This document shows, piece after piece, positions 5,549 to 64,000 of a stretch of 64,000 nt of DNA (within the stretch, counting starts at the first letter, position 1; the number at the start of each line of letters is the position of its first letter). Both the position numbers and the translations under genes were made by a program. The stretch is from positions 49,854 to 113,853 of the forward strand of contig CAZFTG010000001.1 in assembly GCA_964522205.1 (NCBI GenBank), in the 5' to 3' direction. The stretch comes from an uncultured Thermoproteales archaeon. GTDB taxonomy: Archaea > Thermoproteota > Thermoprotei > Thermofilales > B20-G17. Under the pieces are notes generated by a model. The model had not been told where the DNA came from, did not search any database, and worked only from the letters and a program-made list of their open reading frames with translations.

Positions 5549-5666
5549 TGGTGCGGGGGGTGGGATTTGAACCCACGCAGGCCTTCGCCACGGGAGCTCT
5601 CCTCCAGCTCTCCCATCGAGCAAGATCCTGAGTCCCGCCCCTTTGTCCTGGCTCGGGCACCCCCGC
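5549..5666 (-). tRNA. tRNA-Leu (CAG) with ~30-nt anticodon-loop intron, encoded CCA
   Basis: Reverse complement: GCGGGGGTGCCCGAGCCAGGACAAAGGGG CGGGA CTCAGG[~30 nt]TCCCG TGGCGAAGGCCTGC GTGGGTTCAAATCCCAC CCCCCGC ACCA. It has a long variable arm and anticodon loop CUCAGG, giving anticodon CAG. Confidence 0.9.
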
Positions 5667-5781: not shown

Positions 5782-5867
5782 GCCGGGGTGGCCGAGTGGA
5801 CTAAGGCGCGGGCCTGGAGAGCCCGTGTCCCTTCAGGGACGCGTGGGTTCAAATCCCACCCCCGGCG
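5782..5867 (+). tRNA. tRNA-Ser (GGA)
   Basis: GCCGGGG TG GCCGAGTGGACTAAGGC G CGGGC CTGGAGA GCCCG TGTCCCTTCAGGGACGC GTGGG TTCAAAT CCCAC CCCCGGC G. Cloverleaf with a long variable arm. TATA-like ATTTATAT lies ~30 nt upstream. Confidence 0.92.
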
Positions 5868-28933: not shown

Positions 28934-29215
28934 ATGAAAGAACGAGCTTGGAAATTGGGATTTAGATCTCCCATGAATAGACAAAGATTACACTACCTCT
29001 TAAAGCAGAGTGGTTTCTACTCTAGAATGCATGCATATGAGTATTTGATAGGCTTTAAGGGTTCTATAATTGGAGTTATGATAGTAAGTCCTGAAAGAGA
29101 TACTGCTACTCTATATACACATGTAGAACTAGAGCCACAAATAATTGAAAAACTGAAGAACTGTATTGAGGCTGTAGGTGGTACTAATCTACTGGTCAAG
29201 CACGTGGAGGTGTAG
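28934..29215 (+). CDS. Trm5 N-terminal (D1-like) segment, ends at an in-frame TAG
   Basis: 93-aa ORF in the same reading frame as the Trm5 catalytic region immediately downstream; both starts are congruent mod 3. Its position and size match the D1 domain of archaeal Trm5, and the sequence is only loosely similar (RQRLHYLLKQSGFYS...). Confidence 0.45.
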   Translation: MKERAWKLGFRSPMNRQRLHYLLKQSGFYSRMHAYEYLIGFKGSIIGVMIVSPERDTATLYTHVELEPQIIEKLKNCIEAVGGTNLLVKHVEV

Positions 29216-30070
29216 TTCCTGAAGCTAAGAGACGCACTGAAAGGTATAATACCTTCAGAAAAACTTGATCTAGTACCTAGAAGCTTTGATATAGTAGGTT
29301 CTAAAGAAGGAGCTGTCGCTATAATAGAAATACCCTCAGAAATCGAAGATTACAAGTACAAAATAGCTGAAACTATTGCTAAAATACACAAAAATGTGAG
29401 AACTGTGCTAAGAAAGTCTTCACCAAGGTATAGTACATATAGAGTTAGGAATTTCGAACTATTATATGGGAATACCAATACTGAAGTCCTACATAAGGAA
29501 TATGGATACATAATAAAAGTAGATCCTACTAAGGTATACTTTTCTCCTAGAGAGTCTTATGAGAGAGTAAGAATAGCTAAGCAGATTAGAGAGAACGAGT
29601 TTATAATGTTAATGTTTGCTGGAGTAGGTCCCTACGCACTAGCTATATTAAAATTTCAGCCTAACGTGAAGAAAATAATAGCTATTGAAATCTCTCCCAT
29701 AGCCTTCAAGTATTTACTAGAGAACATAGAGCTAAATAAGGCTGTAGGCAAGATACTGGCAGTACTAGGAGATGTAAAGGAGGTATGCAATACATGGTAT
29801 GGCATGTGTGATAGAGTGATTATGCCACTACCTAAAGGAGCCTATAGATATCTCGATATAGCCGTACGATGTCTAAAGCCTGAAGGAGGTATTATACACT
29901 TTTACCACTGGTCAAAAGAAGAGGATCTCTTTTCCGAAGCTGAAGAACTACTAAGAAAAGCAGGAGAAGATCACGGCTTTAAGACTAAGATATTAGAGAG
30001 GAGAGTGGTCTCTCCTTATGCACCAAGAGTATATAAGATAGTGATTGATGCGTTACTCACTCATGAATAG
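29216..30070 (+). CDS. trm5: tRNA (guanine37-N1)-methyltransferase Trm5, D2-D3 (catalytic) region; start codon unresolved
   Basis: Translation from the codon after the TAG reads FLKLRDALKGIIPSEKLDLVPRSFDIVGSKEGAVAIIEI...VRTVLRK...EYGYIIKVDPTKVYFSPRESYERVRIA...MFAGVGPYALA...VIMPLPKGA. It aligns by eye along its length with archaeal Trm5 (Met-10+ family). There is no in-frame ATG/GTG/TTG between 29216 and GTG 29396, and starting at 29396 would delete conserved D2 sequence. Confidence 0.8.
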   Translation, partial: FLKLRDALKGIIPSEKLDLVPRSFDIVGSKEGAVAIIEIPSEIEDYKYKIAETIAKIHKNVRTVLRKSSPRYSTYRVRNFELLYGNTNTEVLHKEYGYIIKVDPTKVYFSPRESYERVRIAKQIRENEFIMLMFAGVGPYALAILKFQPNVKKIIAIEISPIAFKYLLENIELNKAVGKILAVLGDVKEVCNTWYGMCDRVIMPLPKGAYRYLDIAVRCLKPEGGIIHFYHWSKEEDLFSEAEELLRKAGEDHGFKTKILERRVVSPYAPRVYKIVIDALLTHE

Positions 30071-30076
30071 ACTTAT

Positions 30077-30730
30077 TTATTCATTACCTATCTTCAAACT
30101 AAAGGTTTTCCTTAAGTACTCTTTCCACCCCATTTTCTCCACATTCTCAAGTAGTTTAATCCAGTCTATTTTGAGTACAAGTACAATCAACACTATAAGT
30201 AAGATTATAGAGAGTACAGTAGAGATTATACCCTGCTCAAGTCCTAAGTAATATTTCATGAACTCACTAAAGAGCCTTCCCGAGTATGCCGTGAGTACAC
30301 TTATCACAATCTTCCCTGCAGTGCATGATAATAGAAACTTCTTCACATCATATCCTAGTATTCCTAGTAATATTATGATGACATCATCAGGAGAGGGAGT
30401 GGCAGCAAAGATGAAAACAGCTACAGCACCATAATTTCCTATTAACTCTCTAAGAGCCCATAACCTCTTTAGTTGTTCAGGTTTCATTAAAGTACTAGCA
30501 CCCCTAGAGATGTAGTATGTAACTAGTTTTCCTATACCCCCTCCTACGCCACTTACTATACCGAGGAGTAGTGGATCTAGCTCTGGCACATTTGAAGCTA
30601 TTAGGAATATAACCGCTAAATACGGGATAGGGATAAAGGGTATGAAATTTCCTAGTATTGATACTATTAGTGCACCCAAATATCCCCACTTTACTGTAAG
30701 TCTGTAGAGCAATTCTGCTATATTCCACAT
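30077..30730 (-). CDS. DedA/VTT-domain membrane protein
   Basis: 217-aa polytopic protein. GYLGALIVSILGNFIPFIPIPYLAVIFL is typical of the DedA/SNARE-associated family. Confidence 0.65.
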   Translation of the reverse strand: MWNIAELLYRLTVKWGYLGALIVSILGNFIPFIPIPYLAVIFLIASNVPELDPLLLGIVSGVGGGIGKLVTYYISRGASTLMKPEQLKRLWALRELIGNYGAVAVFIFAATPSPDDVIIILLGILGYDVKKFLLSCTAGKIVISVLTAYSGRLFSEFMKYYLGLEQGIISTVLSIILLIVLIVLVLKIDWIKLLENVEKMGWKEYLRKTFSLKIGNE

Positions 30731-30753
30731 TATCCCAAGAAAAGTTATTGAGC

Positions 30754-31293
30754 TTAGTGATAAATTTTTTGTAAACGATGCGTGTATTCTACAAGTACTT
30801 TAGAGGTTAATACTGTTAGAATAGCGTGGAGTACATTGAATATAGCTACATGGATAATGTAAAACGTTAGCCCATAAATACGCAGTAGGCCTGGTAGTAT
30901 AAAGGTTATGACTAGTATATTAGCTAACTCCATGATCATCACTCTAATGGAGATAGGAACCAGTATTACTAAGTAGGATATAGCTCCTTTTTTTCTAAGG
31001 TGCTTACGCACTAGATAAAGTCCTATTACTGTTGAAAGTACTGCTAGTAGCTTCATGAGAGGACCTATGGGTGCGAAAGAGCTTCTAGAGTTTAGGAATA
31101 TGAAGTGTATTATGGCTACGATTATAGCTGAATAGAGATTCAGTGTTAAAAGGGCCACAGCAGAGGGGATTTCGGCTAAATCAAACTTAAGGAACTCTAC
31201 TGGAAAATATGGTATCTCGAGTTTTGTGAGAGTGAAGAGTATAGCTAGTGAGGCTAATATCGAGGTCATTACAAGTTCATATTTCCTAGACAT
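30754..31293 (-). CDS. ECF-transporter S-component-like membrane protein (RibU-like)
   Basis: 179 aa with ~6 TM helices. LEIPYFPVEFLKFDLAEIPSAVALL resembles the conserved loop-1 region of ECF S components. Substrate unknown. Confidence 0.5.
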   Translation of the reverse strand: MSRKYELVMTSILASLAILFTLTKLEIPYFPVEFLKFDLAEIPSAVALLTLNLYSAIIVAIIHFIFLNSRSSFAPIGPLMKLLAVLSTVIGLYLVRKHLRKKGAISYLVILVPISIRVMIMELANILVITFILPGLLRIYGLTFYIIHVAIFNVLHAILTVLTSKVLVEYTHRLQKIYH

Positions 31294-31433
31294 CGAAGTA
31301 ACTGCATAATTACACTATAAAAGCGTTTTTTTAATTTATGAAATGATTGCCTGTATTACTTCATAGAGAGATGCGAACATTTAAATATCGACAGAAGCTG
31401 AATAGTTAATAAGCTAATGTCGAAGGGGAAAAG

Positions 31434-32348
31434 ATGCCCTTTGAGATTACCAGTGCTGAAAAAGCGATGGTAATTAGAGCCAGGGGTATATTTAGTAGAG
31501 GGAATGTCCTAGACTTATATTCATATGTGGCAAGTAATGTAATTTCCCTAAATAGCCTAAATGCGTTAGCTATAGAGATAAGAGGGGGGTTATTAGAACT
31601 TCAAGCACTAGACGAAGGTTTCATCTCCGTCGCAGGGTACGGAGACGTGCTTGTAAACGGAGAACTTTGCGAAAATTGGACTACAATACCAGTAAGACCA
31701 CAAGATAACATAACTATCCGTTCTAAGAATGACTCAGTAGTATACGTCAACATTATTGGTGGAATTCCAAGTGGCTTAGAAGGAGTAGAACTGAGACATG
31801 GAACTAAACTAAGTGAAGCAAGATCTTATGATAGCGAAGAGATTTGTAGAATACTGAGTGCTCTTCGAGTTCCAGAAACTATACGACCTACTACTCAAAA
31901 GGTAATTTGCGTGGCTACACCTAAAATGAGAAAACAACATGATAATACTGTAAAAGCAGTACTGTTTAAGAAAAGAGAATACTACTTGCTCAAGATGGAG
32001 AGAACTCCACCATCTGATGAAACCATAGTGGATGCAGAACCTCCAGTACTAAGATCAGATGGAGGTATCCTAATTCCCATCCTTCACTATAAGCACGATG
32101 ACAATGTATGTGGTTGGATCCCCTCAGATGATCTGGATAGTCTAGCCAGATTAGAGAGCCTGCACCTAGTAGATGTGAAGTACTGCTCTGAGAGTTATGC
32201 TATGGAAAAATGTTCAAAGTATATGGAAAAGCTACTCTGGCTTAAGAGAACTATTGAAACCTCTATAGAAGCTGTCAAAAGGGGAGCTAAAGCTCTCAGA
32301 GTAAAGGTTAACGGAAGGACTTATATAGCTTGGATAGAATCCCTCTAG
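31434..32348 (+). CDS. Hypothetical protein with possible PxpC/KipA (AHS2, cyclophilin-like) N-terminal domain
   Basis: 304 aa. The N-terminal ~130 aa (RGIFSRGNVLDLYSYVASNVISLNSLNALAIEIRGGLLELQALDEGFISVAGYGDVLVNGELCENWTTIPVRPQDNITI...VYVNIIGGI) follows the spacing of the AHS2/PxpC pattern (G..D..a...aN...gN...aalE...G..l.f......a.aG......g....W....v..g..l). This is similarity by eye only. Confidence 0.4.
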   Translation: MPFEITSAEKAMVIRARGIFSRGNVLDLYSYVASNVISLNSLNALAIEIRGGLLELQALDEGFISVAGYGDVLVNGELCENWTTIPVRPQDNITIRSKNDSVVYVNIIGGIPSGLEGVELRHGTKLSEARSYDSEEICRILSALRVPETIRPTTQKVICVATPKMRKQHDNTVKAVLFKKREYYLLKMERTPPSDETIVDAEPPVLRSDGGILIPILHYKHDDNVCGWIPSDDLDSLARLESLHLVDVKYCSESYAMEKCSKYMEKLLWLKRTIETSIEAVKRGAKALRVKVNGRTYIAWIESL

Positions 32349-32366
32349 GAACACTGGTGTACCCTT

Positions 32367-33917
32367 ATGAGAAGAGAGATAGAAGAACTTAGGAAAATTA
32401 GAGAGAGGCTTAAGGAAGGGGGTGGTTTAGAGAAGATCGAGGCACAACATAGAAAGGGCAAGCTTACTGCTAGAGAGAGATTAGAACTAATATTAGATGA
32501 AGACTCAATAGTAGAGTTTAACGAATTTGTAACCCATCGATGTACACTCTTTGGAATGGATAAGAGGAAGGTCTTAGGAGATGGTGTAGTAACAGTTTTT
32601 GGAACTATAGATGGGCGCCCAGTACTAGTATATGCTCAAGACTTCACCTTTATGGGAGGAAGTGTAGGTGAAATGCATGCTAAGAAGATTGCTGAAGTCT
32701 ATAGACTAGCCTTAAAAATAGGAGTACCAGTCATAGGGCTAATAGACTCTGGTGGTGCTAGAATACAGGAAGGAGTCGACTCCCTAAAAGGGTATGGTGA
32801 AATCTTCTACTTGAATGTACTAGCATCTGGAGTTATCCCACAGATCAGCGCAATAGTAGGTCCCGCTGCTGGAGGTGCTGTGTACTCACCAGCACTACAG
32901 GACTTCATATTCATGGTAAGAGGTATAAGCTACATGTTCCTAACCGGTCCCAAAGTAGTTAAAGCTGCACTAGGCGAGACTGTAACATTTCAAGAACTAG
33001 GTGGTGCGGATATACACGGTAGTAAGAGTGGTGTTGCTCACTTTGTAGTGGATAGTGAAAAAGAGCTATATAGTGAGATCAGAAAACTCCTAAGCTATCT
33101 CCCTCTGAACAATATGGATTATCCTCCAGTTATCGAGAGTGATGATGATCCTGAGAGAAGAGAGACCTACCTAGATACAATAGTACCAACTGAGCCCCTA
33201 GAGCCCTACAATATATATGAGGTTATAGAAGGAATATTCGATCTAGGTTCTTTCATGGAAGTACACAAAGACTTTGCTCCTAATGCTGTAGTAGGCTTCG
33301 CTAGACTCGATGGAATACCCGTAGGTGTAGTAGCAAATCAACCTACAGTATACGCAGGCTGTCTCGATATAGACTCCTCCGATAAGATAGCTCGATTCGT
33401 AATGTTCTGTAACGCCTTTAATATTCCAATAGTGACCCTAGTAGACGTTCCAGGCTTTCTACCTGGGACACATCAAGAACATGGAGGAGTAATAAGACAT
33501 GGTGCTAAGATAGTGTATGCCTACTCTATAGCTACAGTACCCAAACTTACAGTTATCCTTAGAAAGGCATACGGAGGCGGTTACATAGCTATGTGCAGCT
33601 CTCACTTAGGTGCAGATATAGTCCTCGCTTGGCCAACCGCAGAAATAGCTGTAATGGGTCCAGAAGGCGCGGCCGAAATAATATATAAAAGAGAACTAAA
33701 GGAGAGCAAGGATAAAGCCTCACTTCTTGAAAAACTAATAAGAGAGTACAGAGATGAGATAGCTAATCCATACGTAGCTGCCAGTAGAGGTTATGTAAAC
33801 TCAATAATAGAACCTAGTGAAACGAGGCCTACTCTAATAAGGCTATTGAAATTCCTAATGAATAAACGAGAGCCCCTGAGAAGACCTCCCAAGAAGCATG
33901 GAATACCCCCTCTATGA
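32367..33917 (+). CDS. Acyl-CoA carboxyltransferase subunit (propionyl-CoA carboxylase beta / methylmalonyl-CoA decarboxylase alpha family)
   Basis: 516 aa. IEAQHRKGKLTARERLELILDEDSIVEFNEFV ... GVVTVFGTIDGRPVLVYAQDFTFMGGSVGEMHAKKI ... VPGFLPGTHQEHGGVIRHGAKIVYAY is the canonical carboxyl_transferase family sequence. Confidence 0.9.
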   Translation: MRREIEELRKIRERLKEGGGLEKIEAQHRKGKLTARERLELILDEDSIVEFNEFVTHRCTLFGMDKRKVLGDGVVTVFGTIDGRPVLVYAQDFTFMGGSVGEMHAKKIAEVYRLALKIGVPVIGLIDSGGARIQEGVDSLKGYGEIFYLNVLASGVIPQISAIVGPAAGGAVYSPALQDFIFMVRGISYMFLTGPKVVKAALGETVTFQELGGADIHGSKSGVAHFVVDSEKELYSEIRKLLSYLPLNNMDYPPVIESDDDPERRETYLDTIVPTEPLEPYNIYEVIEGIFDLGSFMEVHKDFAPNAVVGFARLDGIPVGVVANQPTVYAGCLDIDSSDKIARFVMFCNAFNIPIVTLVDVPGFLPGTHQEHGGVIRHGAKIVYAYSIATVPKLTVILRKAYGGGYIAMCSSHLGADIVLAWPTAEIAVMGPEGAAEIIYKRELKESKDKASLLEKLIREYRDEIANPYVAASRGYVNSIIEPSETRPTLIRLLKFLMNKREPLRRPPKKHGIPPL

Positions 33918-33965
33918 TATCAACTATGTAAATATTTAATAGCACTAATGAAGTGTAAATGATAG

Positions 33966-34151
33966 ATGACGAATAAAGACGATAACCTGGACGAGGAGTA
34001 TGCAAAGATAGCTTTGATAACAGCCATAGTATATACAGAGCTTGAAAAGGTTAAGAGAAGACCAAACAAGCATAAGTACTCATATAAACCTAAAAACCTT
34101 TGGACTCTTGCCTCAAGACTAGATATAATCTTCAATAGGTGTAGTCAATGA
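33966..34151 (+). CDS. Small protein, possible accessory subunit of the biotin-dependent (de)carboxylase
   Basis: 61-aa ORF between the carboxyltransferase and BCCP genes. Its stop overlaps the BCCP start (ATGA at 34148), implying translational coupling. The DEEYAKIALITAIVY motif resembles small epsilon/delta-type subunits. The assignment is positional. Confidence 0.45.
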   Translation: MTNKDDNLDEEYAKIALITAIVYTELEKVKRRPNKHKYSYKPKNLWTLASRLDIIFNRCSQ

Positions 34152-34495
34152 GAAGAAGATTTAGAATAATAATAGATGGAAGAACTTATGAAGTGGAAGT
34201 AGAGCCTCTGAAGACCCCATTAATAGGAAGGAAAAGTCCTAGAGTCAGGCTTATTAGAGACCTAACTAGACCTATCGCTAGAGACGAGATTTTATCTCCT
34301 ATAGCTGGAACCGTCGTAGAGGTTAGAGTGAATACAGGTGATATGGTTAAGAAAGGAGATGTGATAGTCATATTAGAGTCTATGAAGACCCTAGTGGAGA
34401 TCAGAGCCGGTAGAAGCGGTATAGTCAAAGACATCATGGTTAAAGAAGGACAGTTTGTCAACAAAGACCAACCTATAGCTGTAATCAAGAGTTAG
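34148..34495 (+). CDS. Biotin carboxyl carrier protein (biotinyl domain; decarboxylase gamma-chain-like)
   Basis: The N-terminus RRFRIIIDGRTYEVEVEPL and the biotinyl domain ILSPIAGTVVEVRVNTGDMVKKGDVIVILESMKTLVEIRA carry the (E)xMK biotinylation motif. Confidence 0.85.
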   Translation: MRRRFRIIIDGRTYEVEVEPLKTPLIGRKSPRVRLIRDLTRPIARDEILSPIAGTVVEVRVNTGDMVKKGDVIVILESMKTLVEIRAGRSGIVKDIMVKEGQFVNKDQPIAVIKS

Positions 34496-34668
34496 CTGAG
34501 TACTAGTATAAGATTTCCTCATCTTTAAGATCACTAACAAATTAACCACTCTTTTAACAAACCTGTAGTTATAGTATCCATGGAGATTACCTGATAGGGT
34601 CCAGTTTAAAAGAGATGGAGGACGAAGGTATTTTTAAGTGGTCGAGTTAACTCTACTGGTAGTACGAA

Positions 34669-36897
34669 ATGTCAACTAATGCTAAAAGTGAGATTAAGTG
34701 TATATTTCCCGTAGGAGCACAGTTCTACTTCGAACCCTCCAGACCTGTAGACGAACTTCTACATGACATGAGAATTATTAAACATCTAGGTCTCAACACA
34801 CTTAGATTCCAAGAACACTGGTGTATAGATGAAAGTGTAGAAGGTAAGATAACTCTAGACAAAATAGAGTTCCTAATAGAAGAGGCTGAGAGGCTAGGAT
34901 TATATGTATATTTTGTAGTAACCCTAGAACAAGCTCCAGCATGGCTCTACAAGAAGTATCCAGACTGCTGTATGGTCTATAGTACTGGAGAAAGACATTA
35001 TGATCCAACTCAGTATAGGCTTCCTTATGATGGTAAACCCGGACCTTGTTGGGATCATCCAGGAGCACGTAGAGCAGCAATGAACTTTTTGAGTAAGCTA
35101 GTCCAGAGACTTAGTCACTACGATAATATCATAGAGTGGAACATCAATCAGGAAATCGGAATCTGGCCCTTGCATAAAGAGATGGTAATACCCTCAGCCA
35201 CTTTAGGCTTCTGCTATTGCAAGTACACCCTAGCTCGCTTCAGAGCGTGGTTGCGTAAAAAGTACGGTAGCTTAGAAGAGCTTAATAGAGCATGGCGTAC
35301 CGGTTATGGTGACTGGGAGGAAGTTGAACCGCCTAGACTCTACCGAAGAGTTCCATCATACATCGACTGGAGATATTTTATGTACGACATATATATACCT
35401 AGTCAACTTCGTTGGAAGGTGAGTACAGTTAAAGCTAATGATCCTAAAAAACGCCCAGTATCAGCGCATGTTGGCGGAATCCAACCAGGACGAGGTTATG
35501 ATTGGCGTTGGGCAAAAGAAGTAGACATCTACGGAAGTTCATGCTATCCAACAGGTACTTTTCACGAATGGGATGCTGGATATCCACCTCCTGGTATGCC
35601 AGTCTCTTGTGAAAGGTGTATTCTTGAAGAGGTTCTAACTATAGCACTCAGATACGACTATATTAGATGTGCTGCAGGTCCCAATCGTAAGATTGCGGCA
35701 GCGGAATTCCAAGGAGGGCCTAAAGGAGGGTGGGATAGAGTTCCAACATCCGAGGACATAAGACGTTGGGTATTAACAGCTCTCTCCTCAGGTATTCAAG
35801 AGCTACTCTTCTGGAATGTTAGATCTGAGATCTTCTGGACAGAAGCATACGGTTTCGGATTACTAGACTTTCGGAGGGACACTACACCTAGAGCTGAAGA
35901 GGCTGGACGACTGAGCAGAGCACTAAACGAATACCCAGAGCTCTTCAATGAAGGCACAGTTCCTCGAGCAGAGGTAGCTATACTAATTAACGAGGATCTT
36001 TGGCACTTTATGCAGGCTAGAGGATTCTATGAACGGGATCTAGATAAACACCTATCCTACACTATTCGAGGTATCTATAAAATGCTCTGGGACTCTGGGA
36101 TTTGGGTAGATTTCATAGAATCTTATGAAACGGATTTTAATCAATTGAGTAAGTACAAAGCAATAATACTCCCATTTCCTCTAGCTGTAGACGATGAGGT
36201 ATTCAAATTACTCAGAGACTACGTAGCTTCAGGCGGGACTCTTATCTCTGAGGCCTGTCCCGGACGTCATGATCGATTTGGATTTGCTAGATCTGGAAGC
36301 ATATCTCCTATAGCTGAAGAACTCTTTAGTGTAGAGCATTATCAGGTTCGCAGGATACATGAGCCCCAAATACCCCCTAAGTGGACTCCTAGAGAGCTCT
36401 CCTATGGTAGAATATTACCATTTAAGTCTCTTAGGGGCATAGGTCAATTTGAGGGATATCAAATATCACCGAGTTTTTGTGTGGAAATCTACAAGGTCAA
36501 GGAAAGCACTCCAATACTACTATATGGAGATAGCGTAGTAGGAGTGGTTAATAAATTTGGTAAGGGGTTAGCGTACCTTATTGGAACTCTACTTGGGCAT
36601 GCGTATACTGCATTTGACGATTCTAGTAATCAAAGATTCTTATTGAAAATTCTTGAGAATGCAAATGTCATGCCAGAGAAGTGCGGTGGACTTAATAGAA
36701 GAAGGCGTATTAGTAAGGATCTTCAAGCATGGTTCATATTCAATATGACTTCTGAAAGTGTGACAGAAATAATCGACTTAGGAGAGTATACACTAGTTGG
36801 AGAGCTTCTTCAAAGAGATTTATCTGTTGATTCAAATAAATTAAGAATTAAAGTATATCCCTTTGACATACTATGCCCTATATTGAGCACAGGGTAG
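34669..36897 (+). CDS. Glycoside hydrolase, GH42-like (beta-galactosidase family)
   Basis: 742 aa with a TIM-barrel region (LNTLRFQEHW..., IIEWNINQEIG). The central YKAIILPFPLAVDDEVFKLLRDYVASGGTLISEACPG matches the GH42 trimerisation-domain pattern. Confidence 0.6.
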   Translation: MSTNAKSEIKCIFPVGAQFYFEPSRPVDELLHDMRIIKHLGLNTLRFQEHWCIDESVEGKITLDKIEFLIEEAERLGLYVYFVVTLEQAPAWLYKKYPDCCMVYSTGERHYDPTQYRLPYDGKPGPCWDHPGARRAAMNFLSKLVQRLSHYDNIIEWNINQEIGIWPLHKEMVIPSATLGFCYCKYTLARFRAWLRKKYGSLEELNRAWRTGYGDWEEVEPPRLYRRVPSYIDWRYFMYDIYIPSQLRWKVSTVKANDPKKRPVSAHVGGIQPGRGYDWRWAKEVDIYGSSCYPTGTFHEWDAGYPPPGMPVSCERCILEEVLTIALRYDYIRCAAGPNRKIAAAEFQGGPKGGWDRVPTSEDIRRWVLTALSSGIQELLFWNVRSEIFWTEAYGFGLLDFRRDTTPRAEEAGRLSRALNEYPELFNEGTVPRAEVAILINEDLWHFMQARGFYERDLDKHLSYTIRGIYKMLWDSGIWVDFIESYETDFNQLSKYKAIILPFPLAVDDEVFKLLRDYVASGGTLISEACPGRHDRFGFARSGSISPIAEELFSVEHYQVRRIHEPQIPPKWTPRELSYGRILPFKSLRGIGQFEGYQISPSFCVEIYKVKESTPILLYGDSVVGVVNKFGKGLAYLIGTLLGHAYTAFDDSSNQRFLLKILENANVMPEKCGGLNRRRRISKDLQAWFIFNMTSESVTEIIDLGEYTLVGELLQRDLSVDSNKLRIKVYPFDILCPILSTG

Positions 36898-37361
36898 TTT
36901 AACAACAAGAGTTATACTGGTCTGGAGTAGATCTCTTGAACCTCTGTCTTCTTTGGAGTTTATGAGGACTTTTCTTCTCTTATTCTCCTTTCCATAATCT
37001 AATCTTAGAGGACTAGTATGTTAATTTATTGCCTTATATATTCCAAATTAGTTTAGATATCTCTTCAGTAATGTGATATTATTGTGTATCATAGTGGTTC
37101 ATAATGGTGATCTAGGTTTACTCAGACTATAGGTGAGCTCGCCCTTTGTTTCCTCACTGAATTATCCTTTAGACATGACTATACTCCGTCTTTTTCCTAG
37201 TTTTGTAAAGAGCCCTTAGAGCCGTTCTAGGCAAAGGTACATAGGTATAGAAGTGAAAGTTAACAGCAGAGAGTACCCAAAAAGTTAATTTATATTAACT
37301 ACTCTATATACTCCGAAATTGGTTTAAGTACTCTCTACAGTAATTATGAAGGGTATGGAAT

Positions 37362-38342
37362 ATGGTATCAGAACAGAGATGGAAAGAGCTGAAATATAGT
37401 GTTCTAAAACTGCTAATGGTGGAGATAGCATCAGAGGAGGAGATAGCTGAGAGACTAAGATTAAATCCTACACTTACGAGACGATTACTCTCAGCTCTTA
37501 AAGATGATGGATTTTACATAGGAGAATTAGAGAATGGAAAATTGGAGTTAAGGCTGGATAAGCTAGATCTATCAGAGATCAATAATAGATTGAGGACTAA
37601 GCTCATAGGAAAGAGATTGATCTTTAAGGAAATTGTCGACTCTACTATGAATATTGCTCGACAGAATGCGGGTTATGAAGGTCTAGTAGTTATAGCAGAG
37701 AAACAGACAGCAGGTAGAGGAAGAAGTAGAAAGAGGTGGATTTCACCAGGAGGCGGCCTCTGGTTTTCTGTAGTATTCAAACCCAGAACAGCTCCTCAAT
37801 CTATACCTCTTGTGGGGATATTTTCGGCTATATCGATTGCCAAGGCTATAGAGGCATGTGTAGATCTACACCCTAGATTAAAATGGCCCAATGACATCCT
37901 GATCGATAATAAAAAAGTATGTGGAGTATCTACAGAGGCTATATTCGAGGCTGGTGAAACACGCTCAGTAATAGTAGGTGCTGGATTAAACAATAACTTC
38001 TCCCTAGAAGAACTCCCAGAAGAGATAAGAAACAGAGCTACTACACTCATGGAAGAGGTAGGTCATCCCGTAGAACCTATACCTCTACTCTGTAAGATAT
38101 TTGAGAACATGGAACATTACTATGAGACCTTCAAGCGTGGTAATACTGGTAGAATAATAAGTGATTGGGAAACTCTCTCTATGATGAAAGGAGCTGAAAT
38201 ATCAATAAGGTCTAGAATAGGAGAGTTCAGAGGTAAGGTCATAAGTATAGATGAATGTGGTAGATTAATAATCGAGGATGAAAACGGAATTGAACGACGA
38301 CTGAGTACTGGAGTTGTAGAGACCATCGAAATACTGGGGTGA
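37362..38342 (+). CDS. birA: Bifunctional biotin--[acetyl-CoA-carboxylase] ligase / biotin-operon repressor BirA
   Basis: An N-terminal wHTH (EEIAERLRLNPTLTRRLLSALKDDG) is followed by the BirA signature QTAGRGRSRKRWISPGGGLWFSV and KWPNDIL. Confidence 0.9.
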   Translation: MVSEQRWKELKYSVLKLLMVEIASEEEIAERLRLNPTLTRRLLSALKDDGFYIGELENGKLELRLDKLDLSEINNRLRTKLIGKRLIFKEIVDSTMNIARQNAGYEGLVVIAEKQTAGRGRSRKRWISPGGGLWFSVVFKPRTAPQSIPLVGIFSAISIAKAIEACVDLHPRLKWPNDILIDNKKVCGVSTEAIFEAGETRSVIVGAGLNNNFSLEELPEEIRNRATTLMEEVGHPVEPIPLLCKIFENMEHYYETFKRGNTGRIISDWETLSMMKGAEISIRSRIGEFRGKVISIDECGRLIIEDENGIERRLSTGVVETIEILG

Positions 38343-39485
38343 GTGAAGATAAGTAGAGTAGGAATAGCAGACCTTCCACTCCACCGTGGAGGAGTACCGA
38401 AATGGCTAATAGACAGAATGATAAAATTAGGTAGTGAAATAACTCATCTGATCGTAGAGGAATATGGTCGAAAAGAACTCCTTCTTAGACTATCTAACCC
38501 CTTCTGGTTTCAAGCATTGGGATGTGTTCTTGGTTTCGATTGGCACTCCTCGGGTCTGACAACAGTAGTTACTGCTATCCTCAAGACTGTGATTAATAGA
38601 GAGGAAATGGGCATTATAGTAGTGGGAGGAAAGGGCAAGAGAGCACTAAAAACCCCTAAGGAAATAAGTATCTATGGAGAGCGAATTGGAATCTCATCGG
38701 ATAAAATTGAATTTCTGAAAAAAATAAGTAGACTTACTGCTAAAGTGGATAACTGCGCTATTCAAGACGGATATAACATTTATCACCACTCTATGCTGAT
38801 AACTAATGAAGGACATTGGACTGTGATCCAACAGGGGATGAATTTAGAAAATAGGTACGCTAGAAGATACCACTGGTTCAGTGAGAGTATAAGAGATCCT
38901 GTCGAAGAGCCACACTCGGGAATAATCAGTGAAAGAATAGAACCCCTAGTATTAGACATGACTTCCAGAATTAGTAGAGACGCTCGTAAGACCTCAGTGG
39001 ATATAGTAAATGAGGGGGCTAAGCATATCAAAAGACTTATTTATCAGCTTAGATCTACAGTTCGATCTGAAAGTATTATAAAGTGGTTAAATCCTAATGG
39101 TTACCGACCTACTCCTCGTCCTAAGGTGATTTACTTGTCTATGCCTAAGAACATAAATTGGAATGCCATAGAAAGAGCTTATGAACTATCTCCTAAGAAT
39201 TACGAAGAGCTTCTATTAGTAGAGGGAATAGGTCCCTCAACTATAAGAGCACTTGCACTCATCTCAGAGCTCATATATGGAGATGAGGTAAGTTGGAAAG
39301 ACCCTGCAAAGTACTCCTTCGCCTTTGGAGGCAAAGATGGTGTTCCCTACCCTGTCAATACTAGGTGTATGGATGAAGCTATTCAATTCCTAAGAGATGT
39401 AGTGATAGCTTTAAGAACAGATGAAAAGAATAAACGTCAAGCTTTAAATAGACTAAGAATCCTTCAATCGAGACTACGGAACTAG
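38343..39485 (+). CDS. DUF763-family protein
   Basis: 380 aa with a GTG start abutting the birA stop. ADLPLHRGGVPKWLIDRMIKLG...LSNPFWFQALGCVLGFDWHSSGLTTVV matches what I recall of the archaeal/bacterial DUF763 family. Confidence 0.55.
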   Translation: MKISRVGIADLPLHRGGVPKWLIDRMIKLGSEITHLIVEEYGRKELLLRLSNPFWFQALGCVLGFDWHSSGLTTVVTAILKTVINREEMGIIVVGGKGKRALKTPKEISIYGERIGISSDKIEFLKKISRLTAKVDNCAIQDGYNIYHHSMLITNEGHWTVIQQGMNLENRYARRYHWFSESIRDPVEEPHSGIISERIEPLVLDMTSRISRDARKTSVDIVNEGAKHIKRLIYQLRSTVRSESIIKWLNPNGYRPTPRPKVIYLSMPKNINWNAIERAYELSPKNYEELLLVEGIGPSTIRALALISELIYGDEVSWKDPAKYSFAFGGKDGVPYPVNTRCMDEAIQFLRDVVIALRTDEKNKRQALNRLRILQSRLRN

Positions 39486-39546
39486 TCGTACCTAGCTCTT
39501 AAGCATACCGATAATTTATTTAATTCGAGTATTACTCTGAACGTGA

Positions 39547-39659
<113 letters not shown>

Positions 39660-39921
39660 ATTTTTAAAAGGAAATCTAGGCTTGAGAGGGGCCTATTATA
39701 CTTAACTTAATAATCCTACTTTTCTTAGGTATCAATGGATACTAGTGAATTTTTCAGTATTCTAGGATCATTTAATCTTATTTCTCTACTGAAAAATCAT
39801 ACTAATTAACGAAAAAGCTCATACTAAGGATATATGAAGAAAATACAATAGTAAATGTATAAATAATTTTATATATTTTTGCTGAAAGATTTTTTATGAC
39901 GAGAGTGAAATTTATACGTCA

Positions 39922-40530
39922 GTGGGGTCAAATGAGGTTAAGATAACGGTTGAGGAGAAAAAGTGCATAATTGCTACTGTGACTTTTGGATCTGAGCTCT
40001 CTCCTGAAGTCAACTTCTTAAGGTCTTTCAGGGATAACCTAATTCCTAAAACACATTCTGGTAGACAGTTCTACATAGCCGATGAATTTTACTACTCCTG
40101 GAGCACACCTGTGGCTAATCTCATAGCATCAAATCAAGTTCTGAAAACCCTAGTTAAGCTACTCATATACCCGCTACTGGGCATACTTAAATTGACCGCT
40201 ATGGCCACCACTGGCCTATTCCAGTTTAACTCCGAAGCAGCTGCTATACTTGCAGGATTTACAGCATCCTCACTTATAGGAGTGGTTTACATCTTACCGA
40301 TCCTACTGGTACTTTCGTTGATAGCTAGAAGAGTGGGCAGAAAACCCAATCCCTCCACTAGATGGATCAAAACTAGCTGGATAGTAGTCCTTATCTCTAT
40401 AGTATTCATAGTTCTCGGCTTGATGATTGGAAGCGATCCTCTGTTAACTGTTTCAACCTCAGTATATGTCTTAGCCAGCATAGCCTCCGCAACTATGTCC
40501 ACATTCAGTCTACTGGCTAGGAGACTCTGA
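39922..40530 (+). CDS. Membrane protein carrying a Cys-motif anchor module (C-IIATVTFGSELSPEVNFLRSFRDN + TM helices)
   Basis: 202 aa with a GTG start. The KCIIATVTFGSELSPEVNFLRSFRDNLI...YYSWSTPVANLIA motif is one I recall at the C-terminal ends of large archaeal surface proteins, whereas here it stands alone. Three to four TM helices follow. Confidence 0.5.
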   Translation: MGSNEVKITVEEKKCIIATVTFGSELSPEVNFLRSFRDNLIPKTHSGRQFYIADEFYYSWSTPVANLIASNQVLKTLVKLLIYPLLGILKLTAMATTGLFQFNSEAAAILAGFTASSLIGVVYILPILLVLSLIARRVGRKPNPSTRWIKTSWIVVLISIVFIVLGLMIGSDPLLTVSTSVYVLASIASATMSTFSLLARRL

Positions 40531-40822: not shown

Positions 40823-40901
40823 ACTTATATGCTATTCCTATAGTAATATAGCAACTTAGCCTAGTATAAATTGCACTCTATAATTAAAAATCTAGCCTTG
40901 G

Positions 40902-41053
40902 AAAAGTGGAGCCTCCCTTTAAGGCGAGAGTGAACTGTTGTCTTAGCGAAGGTCATAGGATTTCTGCCCTCGCTGTAAAAAACCCTGGATAGCATTTTTA
41001 TTTCTGTGACCGTCGGTGAGCCTTAATGAGTTTTCGGTCTCCTCGGGAGGTCC
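40902..41053 (-). ncRNA. Unclassified structured RNA candidate, copy A (paralog of 63775..63926)
   Basis: The closing helix pairs 41045-41053 with 40908-40917. An inner helix pairs 40924-40930 with 40967-40973. On the minus strand it is preceded by CGTAAAGTTTATAAG, with the first T of the TATA exactly 30 nt upstream of the helix start, and is followed by UUUUCC. Strand was assigned from the promoter, the terminator and a G.U pair that would be A.C on the plus strand. Confidence 0.5.
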
Positions 41054-41075
41054 GATTATTATAGTGAATTAACCC

Positions 41076-41090
41076 CTTATAAACTTTACG
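41076..41090 (-). promoter_or_regulatory. BRE/TATA-like promoter of RNA candidate copy A
   Basis: Minus strand reads CGTAAAG TTTATAAG. The same 13-nt core and the same 30-nt spacing to the transcript's first helix are conserved at copy B (63949-63963), while the sequence in between differs. Confidence 0.5.
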
Positions 41091-41194
41091 TTGGTTTTGC
41101 TTCTAGAACATCTACTGATGGATTACGACAATTCAGATAAAAAATACTGTTTCATCGATTTTAGAAAAGGTTTCACTCCTGATACCTATTAAAG

Positions 41195-41839: not shown

Positions 41840-42281
41840 AGTACTCCCTTCCTCCTGAGTATCTCCTCGAGCTTATCCTTTTTGTAGCTAATAAATCCTA
41901 TCTTCTCGTAAAAGATCACAAATGACTTCAAATCCCTAATTTTTAGTTGAAAGCTGATCAAAAGAATGTACTCTTAGGAAAAGCTTTATGATAGTTAAGG
42001 TTAAGAATCCTCTCAAGAGAAGGGGTTAGAATAGTTTCGCTAGAGTCTGAGAAAGATTTGACTTTAACCAAACACGTAATTAGTGGTACAGTATAACGCT
42101 CCTAATGGACCTGTCGGCCCTATATGATGGAGTAGAGAGCTGTACGGAGATGAAAACCTAATGCATACCCCCGACCCCCAGAACTTGAATTAATAATAAA
42201 GTACTCTTAATCCACAAAGACTTCATTCATATAGCTTTTCGGCAAAGAATCTAGATTAGCCTAACTTGTTCAAAAAAGTGG

Positions 42282-42383
42282 TAGCCCCGCCGGGATTCGA
42301 ACCCGGGATCTGGGGGTTTCCTCCCCCTAGGGCACCCCTAGGAGTCCAAAGCCCCCCATGCTTGACCGCTACACCACGGGGCT
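42282..42383 (-). tRNA. tRNA-Gln (UUG) with ~28-nt anticodon-loop intron
   Basis: Reverse complement: AGCCCCG TG GTGT AGCGGTCAAGCAT G GGGGG CTTTGG[~28 nt]A CCCCC AGATC CCGGG TTCGAAT CCCGG CGGGGCT A. The A1:U72 pair is typical of archaeal tRNA-Gln. Confidence 0.9.
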
Positions 42384-46589: not shown

Positions 46590-46906
46590 TAGATCACACC
46601 TACTCTGACCTACTGTTAGTGCAAGTATAAGTTATATCTATTGTTAAGACTGATTGAATGCCGATCACTAGGCACTTATTTCATTCTAGAGCCTCTACTG
46701 TTGTTTCTATGCTATGATAGATACCTATTAAGTATTGAAATGGACAACTAATTAGCTCTTTTAGAAAGATGTGTCTGTGGAAACTGCTCTGAGAAAACCG
46801 AAGGTAGAACTGGAGTATAGCGGAAAGTTTATAGCATGTAGTAAACATCTACTTATTAAGAGCATAGAGGAAAATCTATATTAGGAGTATATATTTAGGA
46901 TAAAAC

Positions 46907-46998
46907 GCCCCGGTGGTGTAGCCCGGCAAGCATAGGCCTGTGTGGGGTGCAACGGCCTCTCGAGCCGCAGATCCCGGGTTCAAATCCCGGCCGGGGCA
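46907..46998 (+). tRNA. tRNA-Glu (CUC) with ~17-nt intron at a non-canonical position (5' side of the anticodon stem)
   Basis: GCCCCGG TG GTGT AGCCCGGCAAGCAT A G[GCCTGTGTGGGGTGCAA]CGGC CTCTCGA GCCGC AGATC CCGGG TTCAAAT CCCGG CCGGGGC A. Removing ~17 nt restores a 5-bp anticodon stem (GCGGC/GCCGC). The exact exon borders are ambiguous by 1-2 nt. Confidence 0.85.
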
Positions 46999-47093
46999 CT
47001 ACTTCCTATGGTGTTCTACTCTATAGATTGATAAATTACTCTAGTAAACTATTAAATTGATTATTCTTAGTACAAGGTTTATACATTCATTCG

Positions 47094-58932: not shown

Positions 58933-59059
58933 TGGTCCCCCGGGCCGGATTTGAACCGGCGACCATCCGGTTTCGGCTGACCTCCATTCATGCTAGGGCC
59001 TGTGCCCCCTCATGGAGGCCTCTACAGCCGGACGCTCTTCCAGGCTGAGCTACCGGGGG
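58933..59059 (-). tRNA. tRNA-Tyr (GUA) with ~50-nt anticodon-loop intron, encoded CCA
   Basis: Reverse complement: CCCCCGG TA GCTC AGCCTGGAAGAGC G TCCGG CTGTAG[50 nt]A CCGGA TGGTC GCCGG TTCAAAT CCGGC CCGGGGG A CCA. The C1:G72 pair is the archaeal Tyr identity pair. Confidence 0.88.
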
Positions 59060-62385: not shown

Positions 62386-62732
62386 GGGGCCCGGGGAAAA
62401 GCCCTGGGGGGCTACCCCTCCCCTACCTCGGTACATACCGAGGTCCGTAAACGGGGGATATGACGGGGGGCGTTAACCCCACATCAAGGCTCTCCTCTTC
62501 ACCGAGCAGGTGGAGGGCCTCTGTGAGGGTGAACCTCGGTCCCACGGGGTTCCGGAGGCAGGGATGCCACTCGTAGGAGTGGCTAAACTGCCTTGCCGTC
62601 CGAACCGGGTTAGGCCCGGGAGGGAGCGGCCCTAAGGACGGACGGGACGTTCGTGGGAGTGCCGAGGATGACTCACATGCTCTCCCCCTCTCGGTGAATG
62701 AGAGTCGAGATGTGGGGGATGCCCGGGCCCCC
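62386..62732 (+). ncRNA. Signal recognition particle (7S/SRP) RNA
   Basis: A ~350-nt GC-rich island whose 5' GGGGCCCGGGG pairs with the 3' CCCGGGCCCC. It contains GUUAGGCCCGGGAGGGAGCGGCCCUAAGGACGGACGGGACG, which aligns with the universally conserved helix-8 core (GUCAGGUCCGGAAGGAAGCAGCCAAGGCAGAUGACG of E. coli 4.5S). The ends are +/-10 nt. Confidence 0.85.
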
Positions 62733-63595: not shown

Positions 63596-63774
63596 TTTAA
63601 CAATGAGGGGGAATGGAGATGATGCCTCATGAGATCAACTTCAAGATACATCAGAGGAACATCGAATAGTCGATAAAAGTACTCTACTAAGTATCTTAAG
63701 GTTGTACACGGGACATTAATACTCTAAACAGCAGTCTTACTAGTTAGTATAATTGCATCCAGTTCTAGGGTTGG

Positions 63775-63926
63775 AAAATGGAGCTCCCCTTTGAGGCAAG
63801 GGTATTCATGTCCTCAGTTGAACTCATGAAATCGTCGTCCCTTGCTGTAAAAAATACTGTTATAGCGCTTACACGTCAATGATTATCAGTGGGTCTTGGT
63901 GAGCTTTAGTCTCCTCGGGGAGCTCC
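63775..63926 (-). ncRNA. Unclassified structured RNA candidate, copy B (paralog of 40902..41053)
   Basis: A perfect 10-bp closing helix pairs 63917-63926 (GGGGAGCTCC) with 63780-63789 (GGAGCTCCCC). An inner 7-bp helix pairs 63796-63802 with 63839-63845. On the minus strand CGTAAAGTTTATATA lies at 63949-63963, with the first TATA T 30 nt before the helix start. It is followed by UUUUCC (63771-63778). Confidence 0.5.
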
Positions 63927-63948
63927 AATTTAATTATAGAATCTCTTA

Positions 63949-63963
63949 TATATAAACTTTACG
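63949..63963 (-). promoter_or_regulatory. BRE/TATA-like promoter of RNA candidate copy B
   Basis: Minus strand reads CGTAAAG TTTATATA. The sequence and spacing are conserved with 41076-41090. Confidence 0.5.
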
Positions 63964-64000
63964 TTGGGATTTCATTAGGACTAGTAGAAACTCTTAAGTC

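Follow-up and report, generated by a model that had tools for sequence, protein, structure and literature searches.

The two loci described here, RNA A and RNA B, lie in one window (the whole 64-kb stretch of archaeal DNA that was analysed) and form a credible but as yet unclassified, lineage-restricted pair of structured RNA genes, at present a well-supported candidate. On the evidence of sequence comparison, our best explanation is that this is an orphan gene in two long-separated paralogous copies, which would be transcribed from the minus strand to give a stable structured small RNA of about 147-154 nt; we give this a probability of roughly 0.55. The evidence fits the more general description of a non-coding element that is conserved, constrained in its structure, and equipped with an archaeal promoter. 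The original prediction of an independently transcribed structured RNA gains from compensatory changes, low divergence, stop codons in every frame, and promoter spacing identical to that of a tRNA gene in the window, while two of its elements, a U4 terminator and a small hairpin, do not hold.

Two colinear copies

The original prediction described two intergenic regions, 40861-41100 and 63744-63975, that align in conserved blocks, and proposed a gene of about 150 nt with a paralog 23 kb away. Both regions are present, with a mean column identity of 78% when flanks are included. The cores are colinear, both lie on the minus strand, and both are exactly 154 nt long; their alignment contains only four single-base indels. 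A and B are about 65-78% alike, and their similarity exceeds chance. With flanks, the conserved unit extends to about 235 bp in each copy. The coordinates are as follows.

40900-41053, minus strand: RNA A, 154 nt, covariance model score 174 bits
40907-41053, minus strand: body of RNA A
40900-40906, minus strand: 3' tail of RNA A, CUUUUCC
63773-63926, minus strand: RNA B, 154 nt, covariance model score 164 bits
63780-63926, minus strand: body of RNA B, followed by the tail UUUUCC

A covariance model, of the kind that the original prediction had proposed, was built from the five haplotypes available and run on the 64-kb window with filters off. It returned A and B at the scores listed, and nothing in the rest of the window exceeded 12 bits. 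Results from nhmmer agree, finding A and B alone, and searches with the 3'-end motif returned the same two sites only, where 0.01 would be expected by chance. The GC content of the RNAs, 47-49%, falls at about the 95th percentile of the window, which has 39% GC overall. Copy A adjoins a gene for tRNA-Arg. Elsewhere the window contains tRNA genes rich in introns and, at 62389-62728, a canonical archaeal SRP RNA (115 bits).

Core helices and compensatory changes

Three helices make up the proposed core. Pair counts given below use the alignment after correction of a 1-nt register shift in the 5' arm of the outer helix.

P1, GC-rich closing helix: 10 pairs (9-10 bp), with a bulged C in A where B has a G-C pair
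P1b: 3 pairs (3-4 bp), GAG/CUY, beside a conserved AAA bulge
P3, stem of the inner hairpin: 7 pairs
41045-41053, minus strand: P1 5' arm of A, GGACCUCCC, partner of 40908-40917, with C 40909 bulged
40908-40917, minus strand: P1 3' arm of A, GGGAGGCUCC, followed by A 40907 at the RNA end ...CUCCA
41042-41044, minus strand: P1b 5' arm of A, GAG
40918-40920 and 40921-40923, minus strand: AAA bulge and P1b 3' arm CUU of A, kept in five haplotypes
40967-40973, minus strand: P3 5' arm of A, GCGAGGG, with a local competing partner at RNA positions 103-110
40924-40930, minus strand: P3 3' arm of A, CUCUCGC
63917-63926, minus strand: P1 5' arm of B, GGAGCUCCCC
63780-63789, minus strand: P1 3' arm of B, GGGGAGCUCC, followed by A 63779
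63790-63792 and 63793-63795, minus strand: AAA bulge and P1b 3' arm CUC of B, the latter paired with GAG at 63914-63916
63839-63845, minus strand: P3 5' arm of B, GCAAGGG
63796-63802, minus strand: P3 3' arm of B, CCCUUGC

All 20 of the 20 core pairs are standard in every one of the five haplotypes. Three pairs differ between A and B by double-sided changes: one lies in P3, and the other two are neighbours in P1. At a further two pairs, one in P1b and the other at 40929/40968 in P3, G.U of A corresponds to G-C of B; the P3 pair is the single imperfect pair of the original prediction, and it reads A.C on the plus strand, as had been said. The contrast drawn there for the outer helix, CCUCCC/GGGAGG in A against CUCCCC/GGGGAG in B, corresponds after the register correction to the two double-sided changes in P1, with one bulged C in A. 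For the inner helix, the proposed swap of G-C in A for A-U in B is found at one pair. In copy A a closer segment, CCUUCGCU, which is missing from B, offers the P3 5' arm a more stable partner. By reading of the sequence, G 41041 in A extends P1b to a possible 4-bp helix, GAGG/CCUU.

When the 3' partners were slid by one to three columns, pairing fell from 97% to 42-65%, in a run that included eight tentative pairs of a helix P2. In folds computed at 65 and 80 C, P1 and P3 survive. For each molecule as a whole the folding z-score is modest (A, -1.6; B, -3.7). Taken together, the data for P1, P1b and P3 are good evidence for a constrained RNA structure, all of it drawn from the comparison of A with B. 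Because all of the variation comes from that one comparison, the compensatory events number no more than three, of which two are adjacent; covariation is limited in this way because no homologue was retrieved outside the genus.

The claim of compensatory differences thus stands for the outer and inner helices, within that count, and fails for the small hairpin. As originally drawn, the hairpin reads GAGaCC-13 nt-GGcUC for copy A and, for copy B, GAGaC-4 nt-GCUC. This homology depends on how the copies are aligned, and the two are not homologous in the colinear alignment, which is almost free of gaps: there, GCUC of B falls opposite ACUC of A and not opposite GGCUC. Neither folds nor pair counts found a structure common to A and B in the 5' domain. 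Both copies are able to form a 5' hairpin, CUCC-(C)CGA-GGAG, as read from the sequence, and domain 2 of the alignment can be read as three loose repeats of 10-11 nt, CNCAYYRA. A long-range pairing of UCA in domain 2 with UGA in the P3 loop covaries in part yet is broken in L023, and was rejected.

Promoter, 3' end, and strand

Blocks outside the RNA bodies are conserved on both sides.

41078-41094, minus strand: promoter block of copy A, CCAACGTAAAGTTTATA (BRE + TATA), invariant in A, L019, L023, and L033
63951-63967, minus strand: promoter block of copy B, CCAACGTAAAGTTTATA, with the same 30-nt spacing
40862-40875, no strand assigned: flanking block of A, TGCAATTTATACTA in the minus-strand reading, TATA-like whichever strand is read, and about 50 nt upstream of tRNA-Arg
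63745-63757, no strand assigned: flanking block of B, TGCAATTATACTA in the minus-strand reading, identical in the sister strain

The BRE+TATA-like sequence CGTAAAGTTTATA, reported for both copies by the original prediction, proves to lie within a longer block of 17 nt, identical at 17 of 17 positions in A, B and all haplotypes. Also exact in both copies is the predicted distance of 30 nt from the first T of TTTATA to the first helix nucleotide, a G in P1 that we number RNA position 1. The gene for tRNA-Ser at 5782 likewise has TTTATA 30 nt before its first nucleotide, and in the other tRNA genes here the distance is 32-34 nt.

At the other end, RNA A finishes in CUCCACUUUUCC and RNA B in CUCCAUUUUCC, in each case ...CUCCA followed by a pyrimidine tract. 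Six of the nine tRNA genes in the window encode CCA and then a T-rich tract, as in CCACTTTTTTG, CCAATTTTTAA, and CCATTCTCAATTT; the two RNAs are therefore laid out like the local tRNA genes. UUUUCC is not a conserved tail, contrary to what was first proposed. The tails of both copies are altered in the sister strain, to UUCUCC in A and UUCUCU in B (CUCCACUUCUCC and CUCCAUUCUCU), with loss of the U4, and resemble the 3' end of tRNA-Tyr in this window, CCAUUCUCAAUUU. Judged as candidate independent small RNA genes, for which a BRE/TATA at about -27 to -30 is expected, A and B have a BRE/TATA consensus and a spacing that are both present and invariant, and a terminator tract that is weak and variable. 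A scan for promoters and terminators of bacterial type was uninformative, the host being an archaeon.

Transcription is probably from the minus strand. Both of the core G.U pairs, found in copy A, would be A.C mismatches on the plus strand, which weakly favours minus. As the original prediction pointed out, a TATA-like sequence also lies about 30 nt from the other end: TATAATT occurs on the plus strand at 40879 in A and 63748 in B, 29 and 32 nt upstream of helices that start at 40908 and 63780, so the minus-strand assignment is probable and not proven. A functional transcript of the plus strand, or a convergent sense/antisense pair, would account for these boxes. Identical helices form on that strand, where B has a fold z-score of -3.1, and boxes of TATAAT type are found at tRNA genes here; the box of A derives from an insertion of 9-10 nt absent in B, keeping a TATA-like box at promoter distance. 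The internal run would be read as A6 and pose no problem of termination, and avoidance of T6 disfavours a full-length minus-strand RNA. We nevertheless consider a plus-strand product quite unlikely. In addition to the two mismatches, its boxes occupy non-homologous positions, the conserved flanking block of A carries two substitutions in the sister strain, one of them in the TATA-like core, and no conserved T-tract follows the helix, while the promoter block of the minus strand is far better conserved.

An invariant internal U6

Between the 5' domain and P3, both copies contain the same uninterrupted run of U.

40974-40982, minus strand: invariant U6 + ACA of A, UUUUUUACA, joining the 5' domain to P3
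63846-63854, minus strand: invariant U6 + ACA of B

The A-runs at 40977-40982 and 63849-63854 of the plus strand, flagged by the original prediction as a difficulty, are there. An internal U6 is expected to terminate archaeal transcription. Across 44 kb of presumed sense strands, runs of at least six T occur twice and runs of at least six A occur 20 times, and the SRP RNA of the window has no T4 run at all. The invariant internal U6 of A and B is a real anomaly.

It could mean that the unit is split, giving mostly an RNA of about 79 nt, with the 3' half made by read-through and P1 formed in a minority isoform or as part of a switch. The invariance of U6 and the depletion of oligo-T in sense strands suit such a scheme, and the 5' arm of P1 has an alternative in the local CUCC/GGAG hairpin possible in both copies. 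In the A lineage, moreover, RNAalifold prefers GGGUUUUU as partner of GAAAACYC, which pairs it with the U-run, and a change from U.G to C-G in sister strains strengthens this helix. The same helix is poor in copy B, however, and no part of copy A is better conserved than its 3' half, where not one of 69 nt has changed. That half also bears the compensatory partners of the 5' end, an arrangement that is sensible only if both halves share one molecule. Division at U6 is, in our judgement, very unlikely.

Divergence from a sister strain

A sister strain with an overall identity of 95-98%, represented by Ga0190311_1000007 and others, holds both copies at orthologous positions. Its divergence from the window differs by class of sequence.

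tRNA-Arg: 0%
SRP RNA: 0.9%
Nearby ORFs: 1.2-3.4%
RNA B body: 2.0%
RNA A body: 2.7%
Flanking intergenic DNA: 4.7-9% (about 6.5% in neighbouring intergenic DNA)

The RNA bodies show seven substitutions in 294 nt, none of them in P1, P1b, or P3. The unchanged 3' half of A includes the 36-nt loop of P3, which is the same across three strains. Loops in general differ between the paralogues and are conserved between strains. By this comparison of sequences, both copies are under purifying selection in the sister strain.

These observations bear on whether A and B could be a decaying mobile element, either a MITE or the remnant of an integrated element, or a DNA-level repeat that makes no functional RNA. 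There are two dispersed units of about 235 bp with conserved blocks on both flanks, and the neighbour of copy A, a tRNA gene, is a common target of integration. Yet the ends of the units show neither terminal inverted repeats nor target-site duplications, only two copies exist in the window, about 65-78% alike and with differences in the helices that preserve pairing, and both are held at orthologous sites under selection. The RNAs had no match among IMG/VR viral contigs, phage records, or plasmids. The features that the original prediction had named as signs of a MITE are thus missing, and an origin of this kind, lacking a functional RNA, is highly improbable.

Restriction to one lineage

Within the genomes and metagenomes searched, the RNA pair appears to be confined to one narrow lineage, a single genus. 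A scan of metagenomes with a three-block pattern recovered only orthologues of A and B from the same species or the sister strain, plus chance matches. A scan of a genome collection, among whose representatives the source species is apparently not included, with the pattern TTTTTACAGC..AAAGGGNNGCTCC gave 15 chance matches in bacteria. In the neighbourhood of V4R homologues that are 56-62% identical (L035-L044), neither nhmmer nor the covariance model detected a copy. For the adjoining gene of 214 aa, no homologue below 94% identity was found. Nearest relatives by marker proteins are about 55-62% identical, apart from one at 81%. The sole closer relative, L045 from ERZ584659, with 81% nucleotide identity, is syntenic with 28958-39661 of the window; copy A would lie 1.2 kb beyond the end of its contig. 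Proteins of the window recur on an NCBI contig of 117 kb and in several hot-spring metagenomes. Springs that harbour the organism are represented by JGI 3300014887, 3300022170, and 3300005099, ENA ERZ27248455 and ERZ27227318, and SRR7517634.

Comparison with known families

Neither locus matched any of the 4227 models of Rfam 15 at gathering thresholds. Copy A had no match at E<=10, and copy B gave noise only (E 2.5-6.9, 9-17 bits against thresholds of 37-74). This is the outcome of the Rfam search by which the original prediction proposed to look for a known family, and its statement that the element cannot be matched to tRNA, SRP, RNase P, C/D, or H/ACA architecture is borne out by Rfam, by ARAGORN, and by a K-turn scan, all of them negative.

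Individual classes were considered in turn. A protein-coding reading was rejected, as stops occur in all six frames of both copies. ARAGORN, run with introns allowed, identified nine tRNAs in the window and none at these loci, so that intron-containing, split, and permuted tRNAs were set aside; the Rfam tRNA model is silent, and inspection finds no T-arm. B can be drawn as 7 bp + U + CCA after removal of 'GGA', and A cannot. Readings as tRNA-Sec or tRNA-Pyl and as a tmRNA-like molecule lack the defining motifs on inspection. The same holds for type T RNase P RNA, 5S rRNA, and the ORB element of replication origins, for which the comparison was partly with consensus sequences. Rfam models for RNase P RNA, SRP RNA, and 5S rRNA are silent at A and B. 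The box C/D class was rejected because RUGAUGA is absent from both copies and the matches to sR3, sR39, and SNORD24 are noise. Rejection of the H/ACA class rests on the position of the conserved ACA, 5' of P3, on the absence of a K-turn, and on the interior of P3 in B, which has only 2 nt on its 3' side. The K-turn scan returned no conserved L7Ae-type candidate compatible with the helices. Searches for antisense targets within the window gave 11-mers at chance level only.

A possible circular product

The closing stem resembles a substrate of the archaeal splicing endonuclease. The relaxed form of the bulge-helix-bulge motif, hBH, is defined by a central 4-bp helix, at least one flanking 3-nt bulge, and an outer helix [PMC4731332]. 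P1, AAA, and GAGG/CCUY would correspond to these elements, so that a circular product is possible: cuts after AG in ...GAGG-AGA..., at G16, and after AA in ...CCUY-AAA..., at A136 in A or A137 in B, would allow endonuclease and RtcB to circularise an interior of about 120 nt. BHB-flanked RNAs that are circularised include tRNA introns, pre-rRNA processing stems, and the permuted SRP RNA of Thermoproteus, and the most relaxed substrate recognition belongs to the heterotetrameric endonucleases of Crenarchaeota [PMC4731332].

Several features of the window agree with this. Its tRNA genes contain several introns, some of them placed non-canonically, and are as long as 113 nt (tRNA-Ala) and 105 nt (tRNA-Pro), which implies an endonuclease of relaxed specificity; in a host that splices so many introns, the A/B transcript might be cut and circularised as well. 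In the tRNA-Tyr intron, as read from the sequence, an imperfect 4-bp helix is likewise flanked by bulges of AGA and AAA. The motif and its surroundings are invariant in all haplotypes while P1 covaries, as would be expected of a processing stem, and circularisation would explain why a fast-evolving tail is of no consequence.

P1, the AAA bulge, and GAGG/CCUY are all present and invariant. Set against this, there is only one true 3-nt bulge; in place of a second, the site would fall in a junction strand of 69 nt. For its fourth pair (G14-C), the central helix must compete with the pair that closes P3. The interior by itself folds weakly, with -12 to -19 kcal/mol at 37 C; as a circle it would be unfolded at 70 C, so that P1 looks like part of the mature structure. 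The interior also contains no T-arm, box C/D, or other known motif. A circular product is unlikely. If true, it would add a further non-tRNA substrate of the splicing machinery and would represent a circular archaeal RNA of a new class, or else a known RNA in a permuted and so far unrecognisable form.

A working model and its significance

Under our preferred reading, a linear RNA from the minus strand, the position of BRE/TATA would direct transcription to begin with the initial G of the closing helix, and the RNA would end directly after that helix, in ...CUCCA plus a pyrimidine or U tract. The molecule would fold as a three-way junction, for which the compensatory changes speak. P1, the AAA bulge, and P1b would form a GC-rich stem closing the ends, the 3' hairpin P3 would stack under it, and the invariant UUUUUUACA would attach the 5' domain, which is AU-rich and about 65 nt long.

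From here on the model is more speculative. The RNA may act in trans, bound to protein, with its closing stem perhaps protecting the ends at high temperature. The invariant junctions (CCCGAGGAGAC, U6ACA, and GCCUYAAAGGG) are putative sites of protein contact, and U6 could conceivably be a site for an Sm-like protein. Paralogue-specific loops might give each RNA a specificity of its own.

If real and expressed, the pair would represent a new family of structured RNA from a deep-branching, uncultured lineage of thermophilic archaea. To our knowledge, few archaeal non-coding RNAs have known roles beyond tRNA, rRNA, SRP, RNase P, and guide RNAs. A diverged pair of paralogues, with a fixed scaffold and variable loops, would offer a handle on protein partners or targets.

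Relationship to known RNA systems

SRP RNA, 5S rRNA, and RNase P RNA have a GC-rich helix that closes the ends (helix 1, helix I, and P1, respectively) and a BRE/TATA promoter of their own, as A and B appear to have. Raised GC content in an AT-rich thermophile is another shared feature, and the genes for A and B lie among those for tRNA and SRP RNA. Unlike SRP and RNase P RNA, A and B are much smaller, and they match neither these nor 5S rRNA in sequence or structure. They differ from all three in being two diverged paralogues, with an internal U6 and a weakly structured 5' domain.

With the CCA-encoding tRNA genes of the same genome, A and B share a TATA box 30-34 nt from the terminal helix and an end in ...CCA plus a T or pyrimidine tract. 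They have no cloverleaf, T-arm (GGUUCRAAUCC), U8, or anticodon arm, and the CC of their CCA is base-paired.

The H/ACA and C/D sRNAs are also small, and A and B resemble them in paralogue-specific loops, an ACA trinucleotide, AUGA...CUNAG in the P3 loop, and, as a candidate feature, independent transcription. In contrast to C/D sRNAs, they have no pairs of RUGAUGA/CUGA boxes and no conserved K-turn. In contrast to H/ACA sRNAs, their ACA precedes the hairpin, and no two-sided pseudouridylation pocket can be drawn for B.

Compared at the level of sequence with circularised RNAs of the BHB type, A and B likewise have a helix joining leader and trailer, a 3-nt bulge, and a 4-bp helix, in a host whose tRNAs carry multiple introns; they differ in having only one canonical bulge and, in the interior, no recognisable permuted form of a known RNA.

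Repeats in the RNAs and a match outside them

In each of the two paralogous RNAs, a loosely conserved motif of 10-11 nt and of the form CNCAYYRA occurs three times in tandem at RNA positions of about 18-59, within the AU-rich 5' domain that precedes inner helix P3.

40995-41036: repeats of RNA A, CUCAUUAA, CUCACCGA and GUCACAGA
63866-63909: repeats of RNA B, CUCACCAA, CCCACUGA and AUCAUUGA

Judged by sequence, the repeats could represent an internal duplication or a repeated protein-binding motif. U6 is the invariant internal U-run of both RNAs; its region in copy B is matched elsewhere in the window, directly downstream of the 214-aa gene.

41138-41151, plus strand: TAAAAAATACTGTT, exact 14-nt match to the U6 region of copy B (minus strand, AACAGUAUUUUUUA)

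This stretch looks like a T6 terminator of the 214-aa gene; its T-run is interrupted in the sister strain, to TTTTCTA. The match to copy B could be due to chance, or could be a trace of shared origin.

Neighboring genes in related genomes

The genes for PNP and V4R are still adjacent in a relative, where the homologs are 67% and 59% identical, respectively, to those of the window.

L037 8109-10777: PNP and V4R gene neighborhood of the relative

The orientation of PNP is inverted there, and the RNA is absent from the 740-nt gap between the two genes, which contains a small unannotated ORF. Comparison with the sister strain shows a deletion of about 2 kb in the window genome, at about 39900-39920. 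The ORF adjoining tRNA-Arg is the C-terminal remnant of a repeat-rich surface protein that the sister strain keeps intact.

39922-40530: 202-aa ORF, window
L023 828-3518: intact 896-aa counterpart, sister strain

tRNA genes and a distant promoter-like block

Several tRNA genes of the window are 93-127 nt long, and six of its nine tRNA genes encode CCA.

39547-39659, 42279-42383, 5549-5666, 58933-59059 and 46907-46999: tRNA genes

For tRNA-Ala (113 nt) and tRNA-Pro (105 nt), the single called intron does not account for the full gene length, which implies second, non-canonical introns. The identity of tRNA 46907-46999 is ambiguous: ARAGORN reports His(GTG) without introns, whereas its intron-permitting mode gives Cys(GCA) and places an intron of 8 nt in the gene. 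Upstream of this gene lies a near-copy of the 17-nt BRE/TATA block that precedes both RNAs.

46819-46833, plus strand: AGCGGAAAGTTTATA, near-copy of the RNA promoter block

Its distance from the tRNA, about 75 nt, exceeds the usual spacing of 30-34 nt. Use of the block as a promoter would imply that the tRNA has a long leader or that a small transcript, so far unannotated, starts there.
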